Assembly: GCA_947591045.1 (NCBI GenBank)
Contig: CANQCV010000001.1
Location: 20,556-84,555, forward strand
Length of the DNA stretch: 64,000 nt
Reading direction: 5' to 3'
From: an uncultured Clostridia bacterium
GTDB taxonomy: Bacteria; Bacillota; Clostridia; TANB77; CAG-508
Below the pieces are notes generated by a model that saw nothing but the letters and a program-made list of their open reading frames with translations, did not search any database and was not told the DNA's origin. Shown in pieces: positions 49,757 to 50,120 of the stretch (positions are counted from its first letter, which is position 1; each line of letters opens with the position of its first letter). A program made the position numbers and the translations under genes.

Positions 49757-49787
49757 TTTTATTTTTCCTCCTTTATATAAAAAACAC

Positions 49788-49829
49788 GCAAAAAATACAG
49801 GCTGTTTATTTTTACATAAATAGTCTGTC
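49788..49829 (-). terminator. intrinsic terminator / attenuator overlapping the end of leader ORF 2
   Basis: Minus-strand ACAGACTATTTAT-GTAAAA-ATAAACAGCCTGT followed by ATTTTTTG. 11 of 13 positions pair. Confidence 0.5.
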
Positions 49830-49946
49830 TTCATATATCACAAATAAAGCGATTCTTTCGCTTACCTCTATTTTACTAAATTGTAGCTCTCTCTCTCTCT
49901 CTCTCTCTCTCTCTCTTACAGCCTTAAGGCTTTTGCAGTTTTTCAT
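49812..49946 (-). CDS. leader micro-ORF 2 (44 codons) containing the (AG)15 tract
   Basis: SD AAAGGAG and ATG 49946. The peptide is MKNCKSLKAVRERERERERELQFSKIEVSERIALFVIYEDRLFM. The TAA stop at 49814..49812 lies inside the terminator hairpin. Confidence 0.5.
   Translation of the reverse strand: MKNCKSLKAVRERERERERELQFSKIEVSERIALFVIYEDRLFM
49887..49916. repeat. perfect dinucleotide microsatellite (CT)15 on plus, (AG)15 on minus
   Basis: Counted by hand at 30 nt. Confidence 0.95.
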
Positions 49947-49967
49947 TTGTAATATTCTCCTTTACCT

Positions 49968-50034
49968 CGGGCGACCGATGGTCGCCCCTACATATATTTT
50001 TGCAATGGTCGTCCCTACATCACTTATTTGTGAT
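49968..50034. repeat. GC-rich palindromic element copy D (perfect), a degenerate half copy E, and an ATCAC-N-GTGAT palindrome
   Basis: CGGGCGACCGATGGTCGCCCCTACA at 49968..49992, CAATGGTCGTCCCTACA at 50003..50019, and ATCACTTATTTGTGAT at 50019..50034. Confidence 0.8.
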
Positions 50035-50075
50035 TGGTAGTCCATGTTTGTGTTTTTCTGTTCTTTTACATTTAC

Positions 50076-50104
50076 AGTATAGCTATATTTTTTCTTTTAG
50101 TCAA
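50076..50104 (-). promoter_or_regulatory. sigma-A type promoter for leader 2
   Basis: Minus-strand TTGACT, a 17-nt spacer, then TATACT. Confidence 0.45.
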
Positions 50105-50120
50105 GTATTTTTCTTCATTT

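Follow-up and report, generated by a model that had tools for sequence, protein, structure and literature searches.

A candidate leader-peptide/attenuator phase-variation switch upstream of a pilin-like protein gene in an uncultured gut Clostridia bacterium

The window analysed here comprises 64,000 nucleotides of contig CANQCV010000001.1 (GenBank assembly GCA_947591045.1, positions 20,556 to 84,555) from an uncultured Clostridia bacterium. A leader unit with a perfect (AG)15 repeat (W2; 49757-50110, minus strand) precedes the gene for a pilin-like protein of 494 amino acids (aa), and a paralogous leader unit (W1; 6060..6370, minus strand) precedes the gene for a 493-aa paralog. W2 is interpreted as a phase-variation switch of the leader-peptide/attenuator type in which the reading frame of the leader is set by repeat length; the probability of this reading is estimated at roughly 0.7. 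An initial annotation, made from the letters of the window alone, had proposed that leader translation and repeat length control read-through into the gene. Comparison of related sequences supports this proposal by the geometry of 18 leader-terminator units, by the out-of-frame repeat of W1, and by a repeat number that varies among relatives.

In the proposed mechanism, transcription would start at the promoter-like sequence TTGACT-17-TATACT, and ribosomes would initiate at a strong Shine-Dalgarno sequence (SD) and ATG of the leader. In two of the three frames, the ribosome would be halted at a stop codon 11 or 19 nt past the repeat; the downstream hairpin with its U-run could then form, and most transcripts would end before the gene (OFF, or low expression). 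In the third frame (n = 9, 12, 15 and so on; n = 15 at W2), the ribosome would translate across a small hairpin (hairpin 1) and the terminator's 5' arm and stop while covering the terminator hairpin, which would keep the latter from forming, and the polymerase would proceed into the 494-aa gene (ON). AG units would be gained or lost by strand slippage at replication, which would render the ON and OFF states of individual paralogs heritable and reversible. Paralog 2 (the 494-aa gene, n = 15) is predicted to be ON and paralog 1 (the 493-aa gene, n = 13) to be OFF. Termination, ribosome-mediated anti-termination and the switching itself are proposed by analogy with the pil1 locus of Streptococcus gallolyticus.

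Leader units W2 and W1

The elements of W2 are listed in Table 1 in their order on the minus strand. The promoter, palindrome, GC-rich hairpin, SD, ATG, open reading frame (ORF) of 44 codons and (AG)15 tract of the initial annotation are all present, and the last codons of the leader with the TAA lie, as it had also described, in a hairpin followed by a U-run: the final codons and the TAA occupy the 5' arm and the loop, with the TAA at the 3' edge of the loop. The predicted leader peptide is MKNCKSLKAV(RE)5LQFSKIEVSERIALFVIYEDRLFM, and an AG run of 14 nt had no occurrence in 100 shuffles of the window. Identical promoter hexamers with identical spacing are found upstream of the homologous leaders L085 and L086 (L numbers denote loci or contigs compared with the window, P numbers predicted proteins), and promoter-like sites similar to that of W2 were found for W1, L091 and L092. 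The strong hairpin behind the 494-aa gene, at which a simple terminator scan made no call, is probably the end of a monocistronic unit.

A tandem-repeat scan of the window yielded W1 as a second tract, (AG)13, upstream of the 493-aa gene. The W1 leader is ~86% identical to that of W2, and the two can be aligned end to end, i.e. through promoter, palindrome, GC hairpin, SD, ATG, repeat, CTACAATTTAGTAAAATAG flank, small hairpin and terminator. The repeat of W1 measures 26 nt versus 30 nt in W2, which shifts the frame into a TAG 19 nt past the repeat and leaves a peptide of 24 aa; the window holds one leader copy in the long frame (W2) and one in a short frame (W1). Taken by itself, W2 could well have a frame open up to the hairpin by chance (P = 0.35 in shuffles); the significance is drawn from comparative data.

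Table 1. Coordinates of the leader units and associated features in the window
Feature	Coordinates	Strand	Remarks
W2 promoter-like TTGACT-17-TATACT	50104..50076	minus	10/12 consensus positions matched
W2 palindrome ATCACAAATAAGTGAT, 5' untranslated region	50034..50019	minus	
W2 GC-rich hairpin GGGGCGACC-ATC-GGTCGCCC, just 5' of leader SD	49988..49969	minus	-16.5 kcal/mol
W2 leader SD AAAGGAG	49963..49957	minus	
W2 leader ORF	49946..49812	minus	44 codons; ATG 49946, TAA 49814..49812
W2 repeat, perfect (AG)15	49916..49887	minus	leader codons 11-20; ORF in long (predicted ON) frame
W2 off-frame stops, inside conserved CTACAATTTAGTAAAATAG flank	49868..49878	minus	TAG ending 11 nt and TAG ending 19 nt past repeat
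W2 hairpin 1 (AAGCGA-AAGAA-TCGCTT), then U-rich tail UUAUUUGUGAU	49847..49863	minus	-5.8 kcal/mol
W2 putative attenuator: terminator hairpin and U6	49828..49797 (hairpin), 49795..49790 (U6)	minus	-7.0 kcal/mol
Main-gene SD and ATG	49774..49767 (SD), 49756 (ATG)	minus	494-aa gene, SD to end 48272..49774
Strong hairpin ~30 nt past stop codon of 494-aa gene	48214..48242	minus	-19.1 kcal/mol, z = -5.2
W1 unit	6060..6370	minus	promoter 6370..6342, ATG 6215, (AG)13 6185..6160, hairpin 1 6136..6120
W1 putative terminator, then U-run	6105..6066	minus	-16.4 kcal/mol, z = -7
Spacer between W1 terminator and 493-aa gene, ~190 nt	within 4379..6059	minus	two further GC hairpins (5959..5940, 5903..5884)
Paralog 1 gene, 493 aa	5860..4379	minus	50% amino-acid identity to 494-aa protein
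Third candidate repeat switch (GT87): SD, ATG 34059, MKQQNLGAV, (AC)9 34033..34016	32768..34059 (gene 32768-33928)	minus	

Geometry, repeat length and in-frame cassettes in related loci

A genome scan with the family alignment, over genomes that did not include the window's own species, gave 80 loci, all in metagenome-assembled genomes (MAGs) of uncultured gut Clostridia (rabbit, Hadza, mouse and others), with a best match of 44% protein identity. Among the closest homologues, P0001, P0005 and P0011 have no contigs on record, and the contigs of P0010, P0020 and P0008 have their breaks at, or close to, the leader or the conserved 5' part of the gene. Short-read contigs from ENA (L083-L086, L091 and L092) likewise often end in or beside leaders or conserved gene 5' ends; paralogy probably fragments the assemblies and hides many copies. 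A blind scan of the 80 loci for simple sequence repeats detected long dinucleotide repeats only on the sense strand and 5' of the homologues, namely (AG)11-13, (AC)10-14 and (TA)11. All 22 long repeats examined have in common a 5' flank of approximately AAAaCCTTGnGGCTGT(A), an SD and start codon 27-76 nt upstream, and a 3' flank of approximately CTAyAnTTTAG.

Eighteen leader-terminator units (W1, W2, L085-L087, L089, L090, L013, L035, L036, L066, L067, two in L020, L042, L052, L041 and L046) were drawn from the window, gut MAGs and metagenome contigs, with homologues down to 26-37% protein identity; for each unit, repeats of n-2 to n+2 were simulated and the downstream RNA was folded. In all 18 units, two of the frames meet a stop 4-67 nt past the repeat, well upstream of the terminator, and exactly one frame is open to the terminator; the SD and start codon precede the repeat by 27-76 nt in every unit, and the off-frame stop arrangement of W2 is found likewise in all related leaders. 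The long frame ends in the terminator loop in eight units (W1, W2, L085, L086, L066, both of L020, and L042), at the boundary of loop and 3' arm, within the 3' arm or at its end in six (L087, L089, L090, L035, L036 and L041), and beyond the terminator in L013, L067, L052 and L046. The stem sequences of the terminators vary between lineages, and a ...CTGTCTTTTTTGCG-like tail is kept in all. The shuffle probabilities for any frame being open to the 5' arm multiply to ~1e-9 over nine lineages treated as independent.

Leader translation might also gate the gene other than by melting the terminator: an early end of translation would leave naked RNA open to Rho-type polarity or RNases, or would change mRNA folding or stability near the main SD. 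The weak hairpin of W2 would fit such an effect, as would the long, structured spacers between terminator and gene in paralog 1 and L092, in which the GC hairpins may serve in processing or stability; however, every lineage has a hairpin and U-run with the conserved tail, the stop of the long frame is placed in or just past the hairpin, which simple polarity would not need, and the main SD is not sequestered in predicted folds. Gating of this kind is regarded as unlikely.

The long-frame leader peptide itself could be the product, a phase-variable small hydrophobic protein, in which case the downstream gene would not be the target. LQFSKI...IALFVIY.DRLFM is indeed kept among close relatives, and the ratio of nonsynonymous to synonymous substitution rates (dN/dS) is ~0.3 in some pairs; in other pairs it is ~1 with few substitutions, and the overall range of 0.3-1.0, obtained on only 5-15 substitutions, gives no clear sign of selection on the peptide. 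Moreover, long-frame peptides range from 36 to 104 aa with almost no sequence common between lineages, and the stretches that are conserved fall on RNA or DNA elements (the stops of the other two frames, hairpin 1 and the terminator arm), hairpin 1 being kept while the encoded residues change. A function of the peptide as the product is considered very unlikely.

The dinucleotide differs between homologous cassettes: (TA)11 stands in place of (AG)n in L041 (542-563) and in L046 (4371-4392; from the same MAG as L052), and the cassettes of L020 and L042 carry (AC)n. As judged from these cassettes, the repeat unit is exchanged while flanks and geometry are kept, which indicates that the length of the repeat matters and not its sequence. 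A role of the repeat without translation, as a purine-rich binding platform on RNA or DNA, a spacer or a structure-forming tract, would be hard to reconcile with this exchange, or with a repeat that lies always within an ORF with SD and is followed by stops in exactly two of three frames. Rfam searches yielded only tRNAs for the whole window at gathering scores, and no match for 49700..50130 at E <= 1. In principle, (AG)n could offer GAG triplets to an RNA-binding attenuation protein, an idea only; a TRAP-like protein on such triplets was rejected, since AC and TA replace AG in homologous cassettes. A translation-independent role is held to be highly improbable, and the interchangeable units, the ever-present SD and start codon, and the stops in two of three frames support the reading in which length sets the frame.

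A search of the protein collection with the leader peptide retrieved called leader ORFs (P0121-P0126) in ENA metagenomes, with (RE)3, (RE)4 or (RE)5, and the same N-termini are also known in off-frame versions. The leader DNA was obtained via these called peptides and one metagenome pattern scan. The (AG)n length heterogeneity for which the initial annotation had called was found among relatives: leaders with a near-identical promoter and 5' untranslated region have n = 9 (L090), n = 12 (L089) and n = 15 (L087), and leaders of the MKNCKSLKAV type have n = 11 (L091), 12 (L092), 13 (W1) and 15 (W2). When loci found through called long ORFs, which are biased to the long frame, are left out, the long frame is found in four units and a short frame in 13. 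A k-mer assembly artefact was considered as the source of n = 11 and tentatively set aside, since a tract of 22 nt should be below the length of the final assembly k-mers and n = 11 occurs also in a long-read assembly.

The same cassette was also found fused in frame to structural genes. In L010 (5774-6090) and L030 (5928-6090) it is in frame with a pilin-like gene and has no terminator; both copies are out of frame at n = 11, and in L010 the fusion would add an N-terminal extension of ~70 aa ahead of GITLIAL. On sequence grounds, these two loci are taken to represent ordinary translational phase variation with the same cassette. A third repeat switch is predicted in the window at the GT87 locus (Table 1), with the same 5' flank as in the pilin leaders: the ORF is fused to a GT87-family membrane glycosyltransferase of 429-431 aa if n is 8 or 11, and with the current n = 9 it stops after 18 aa, so this surface-polysaccharide gene, which adjoins an RfbH-like gene, looks phase-variable and currently OFF. 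The in-frame fusions in L010, L030 and the GT87 locus point to gating of downstream expression as the role of the cassette. At W1 and W2, the repeat is not within the ORF of the regulated protein, i.e. the leader ends first and the gene has its own SD and ATG.

In view of the in-frame versions, the leader at W2 could be a relic, namely the 5' portion of an ancestral gene of the L010/L030 type that became detached and has no regulatory role left; the decay of the W2 terminator relative to its paralogs, and a promoter behind the leader of L083, would agree with this. On the other hand, the geometry of one frame open to the terminator is kept in at least nine divergent lineages, the SD, start codon and perfect long repeats are retained where an unselected perfect (AG)15 would decay, and W2 has no room for a second promoter between U-run and SD. 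A relic is therefore judged quite unlikely.

None of these alternatives accounts for the conserved frame-to-terminator geometry as well as the attenuator switch does; nevertheless, several observations weigh against the latter. The attenuator hairpin of W2, though homologous to strong terminators in W1 and L085, is weak (z = -0.9 versus shuffles) and received no call in the simple terminator scan; the ON/OFF contrast at W2 may therefore be small, and this copy may be leaky. Repeat counts in short-read MAG assemblies may be imprecise or represent consensus values. A structured spacer of ~190 nt lies 3' of the terminator in paralog 1, L086 and L092. Coupling of transcription and translation is reported to be loose in some Firmicutes, so that a pause signal would be needed, for which hairpin 1 is only a candidate. 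Finally, L083 (1-260), whose leader is a third close copy cut by the contig end, has a perfect promoter, TTGACA-17-TATAAT, downstream of the leader terminator and ahead of the paralog gene P0020; some paralogs, such as P0020, may thus escape leader control.

Comparison with described systems

The combination of repeat, leader and terminator had been regarded in the initial annotation as not described before; it has, however, been shown experimentally for the pil1 and pil3 loci of S. gallolyticus, where GCAGA repeats in a leader-peptide gene alter the length of the leader (Danne et al. 2014, PLoS Pathog, PMC3894217). At pil1, a leader stop within or near the stem-loop terminator leads to more transcription through ribosome-induced destabilisation of the terminator, and frames that stop at least 28 nt upstream of the terminator give low expression, as established by mutating the leader start codon, by triple-stop mutants and by deletion of the terminator; the same device operates at pil3, and the repeat number differs between isolates (PMC3894217).

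All sequence-level defining features of the pil1/pil3 mechanism are present at W2, the terminator in a weak form. Both systems have, in this order, a promoter, a leader ORF with ribosome-binding site, a repeat unit that is not a multiple of three, a stem-loop terminator and the structural gene; in both, the stop position depends on the frame, the repeat number varies, two loci in one genome have the device, and the target is of the surface appendage or adhesin type. In contrast to the 5-nt GCAGA unit in 13-26 copies of pil1/pil3, the Clostridial units are AG, AC or TA, of 2 nt and in 9-15 copies; one of three frames would be ON, compared with two of three in pil1, and the target is a pilin-like/FGE family with many paralogs rather than a sortase-pilus operon. 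Further differences are the hosts, which are uncultured gut Clostridia, the extra conserved hairpin and U-rich tail before the terminator, and the occurrence of the cassette also as an in-frame fusion. The leaders have no sequence homology to the pil1 leader, repeat unit and flanks being unrelated, and are therefore viewed as an independent analogue and not a homologue.

The precedent in S. gallolyticus lowers the novelty relative to what had first been assumed. In the literature searched, no other described example besides S. gallolyticus and no description of this Clostridial family were found. Phase variation combined with leader-peptide attenuation has pil1/pil3 as its one experimentally characterised case. 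What is new is that such leaders occur in uncultured gut Clostridia, that their repeats are dinucleotides, that their targets form a multi-paralog family, and that there is evidence for a modular cassette. These observations suggest that the same logic evolved independently, is common in poorly known gut Clostridia, and controls a large family of surface proteins there.

Three other types of system resemble parts of the proposed switch. Classical translational phase variation, e.g. through CT repeats in outer-membrane protein genes of Helicobacter pylori or CTCTT repeats in Neisseria opa, likewise uses a slipped-strand repeat near the start codon for heritable and reversible ON/OFF switching of surface proteins, and this is the type that L010, L030 and the GT87 locus resemble; at W1 and W2, in contrast, the repeat is in a separate ORF, and the frame would be read out via a terminator. 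In the pyrBI operon of Escherichia coli, UTP-dependent pausing of the polymerase sets how closely the ribosome follows on the leader. As proposed for W2, a ribosome that translates a leader ORF of ~44 codons up to the attenuator hairpin physically blocks the terminator; the signal is physiological in pyrBI, whereas it would be genetic here, with repeat length deciding whether the ribosome can reach the hairpin. In cwpV of Clostridioides difficile, a phase-variable leader between promoter and surface-protein gene also decides on the formation of an intrinsic terminator, though through recombinase-driven DNA inversion and without a repeat or leader translation; the switch proposed here would involve the latter two and no inversion.

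Tentatively, and with rather more doubt than belief, SD, ATG, ~10 codons and a dinucleotide repeat, flanked by AAAaCCTTGnGGCTGT(A) on its 5' side and by CTAyAnTTTAG with the off-frame stops on its 3' side, may together form a modular cassette that was grafted repeatedly onto surface-related genes (pilin-like/FGE paralogs, GT87) across a broad clade of uncultured gut Clostridia. The cassette would have two forms, one fused in frame as an N-terminal extension and one linked to a terminator and equipped with a dedicated pause hairpin. In that case, only a stochastic subset of a large family of paralogs would be expressed in each cell, which would amount to antigenic or adhesive variation in commensal Firmicutes, a group for which mainly invertible-promoter switches are known otherwise. 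The ON/OFF predictions can be read from the sequence for each paralog, and could be scored in long-read metagenomes as a way to follow surface variation in uncultured commensals. For annotation, such short ORFs would have to be treated as regulatory, and repeat-dependent 'frameshifted' genes such as that for GT87 as contingency loci and not as pseudogenes.

Accessory elements and the regulated gene family

A hairpin at the position of hairpin 1, i.e. between the off-frame stops and the terminator and with a U-rich tail UUAUUUGU, is present in W2, W1 (6120-6136), L087-L090, L035, L036, L013 and L066. At least six lineages have different stem sequences at this hairpin (e.g. AAGCGA/UCGCUU, AAGGCA/UGCCUU, GCUUAAG/CUUAGGC and AACUAAA/UUUAGUU); each hairpin was folded separately, since MAFFT could not put the lineages in register owing to their different loop lengths. 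Hairpin 1 may be an RNA polymerase pause site that lets the ribosome catch up.

The palindrome and the GC hairpin listed in the initial annotation are present at W2 as described; as parts of a conserved switch they did not hold up, since both are absent from the homologous leaders L085 and L086, and they are regarded as lineage-specific extras. A copy of the palindrome with one mismatch is found at 6284..6269. The palindrome ATCACAAATAAGTGAT is complementary over 10 nt to TATTTGTGAT (49837-49846), inside the leader ORF directly past hairpin 1; this could represent long-range RNA pairing, or the two sequences may be GTGAT operator half-sites. The GC-rich hairpin element TGTAGGGGCGACCATCGGTCGCCCGAG (-16.5 kcal/mol) stands out in an AT-rich genome and occurs only in leader and spacer regions of this gene family, usually just 5' of an SD: further copies are at 6265..6246, 5959..5940 and 5903..5884, with a half copy at 50003-50018, and outside the window the element was found in L091 (~640-665), L092 (~3797-3813) and L001 (~385-410). 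Possible roles are those of a 5' stabiliser of mRNA or a processing site; alternatively, the element may be a small mobile repeat.

Genes for an OmpR-type response regulator and a HAMP/HisKA histidine kinase (50121..52401, minus strand) end 17 nt upstream of the leader promoter. This two-component system was rejected as a partner of the switch, since related leaders are found in unrelated neighbourhoods.

The 494-aa protein has a C-terminal FGE-sulfatase domain (PF03781, residues 394-489; 37.5 bits with a cutoff of 23.3, E = 2.7e-9), which is below threshold in the 493-aa paralog, and a hydrophobic, pilin-like N-terminus (..RGITLIALVVTIIVLIILA..). The N_methyl domain PF07963 is sub-threshold in the 494-aa protein (17 bits versus a cutoff of 21.2, E = 0.0044), and its prepilin-type motif is G-I-T-L-I-A and not G-F-T-L-I-E, with Ala instead of Glu at +5; the protein is pilin-like only and does not qualify as a type IV pilin or prepilin. 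NCBIfam gave no name to either paralog, and an AlphaFold2 model of the 494-aa protein from an alignment of 21 sequences was unusable (predicted local distance difference test score of 44). The protein is a member of a very large family, of which single contigs carry several paralogs. The ~190-nt spacer of W1 (window 5960-6059) and L086 (4150-4227) is the sequence also found between tandem paralogs in L001/L002 (1-430), and leaders may thus head arrays of several paralog genes.

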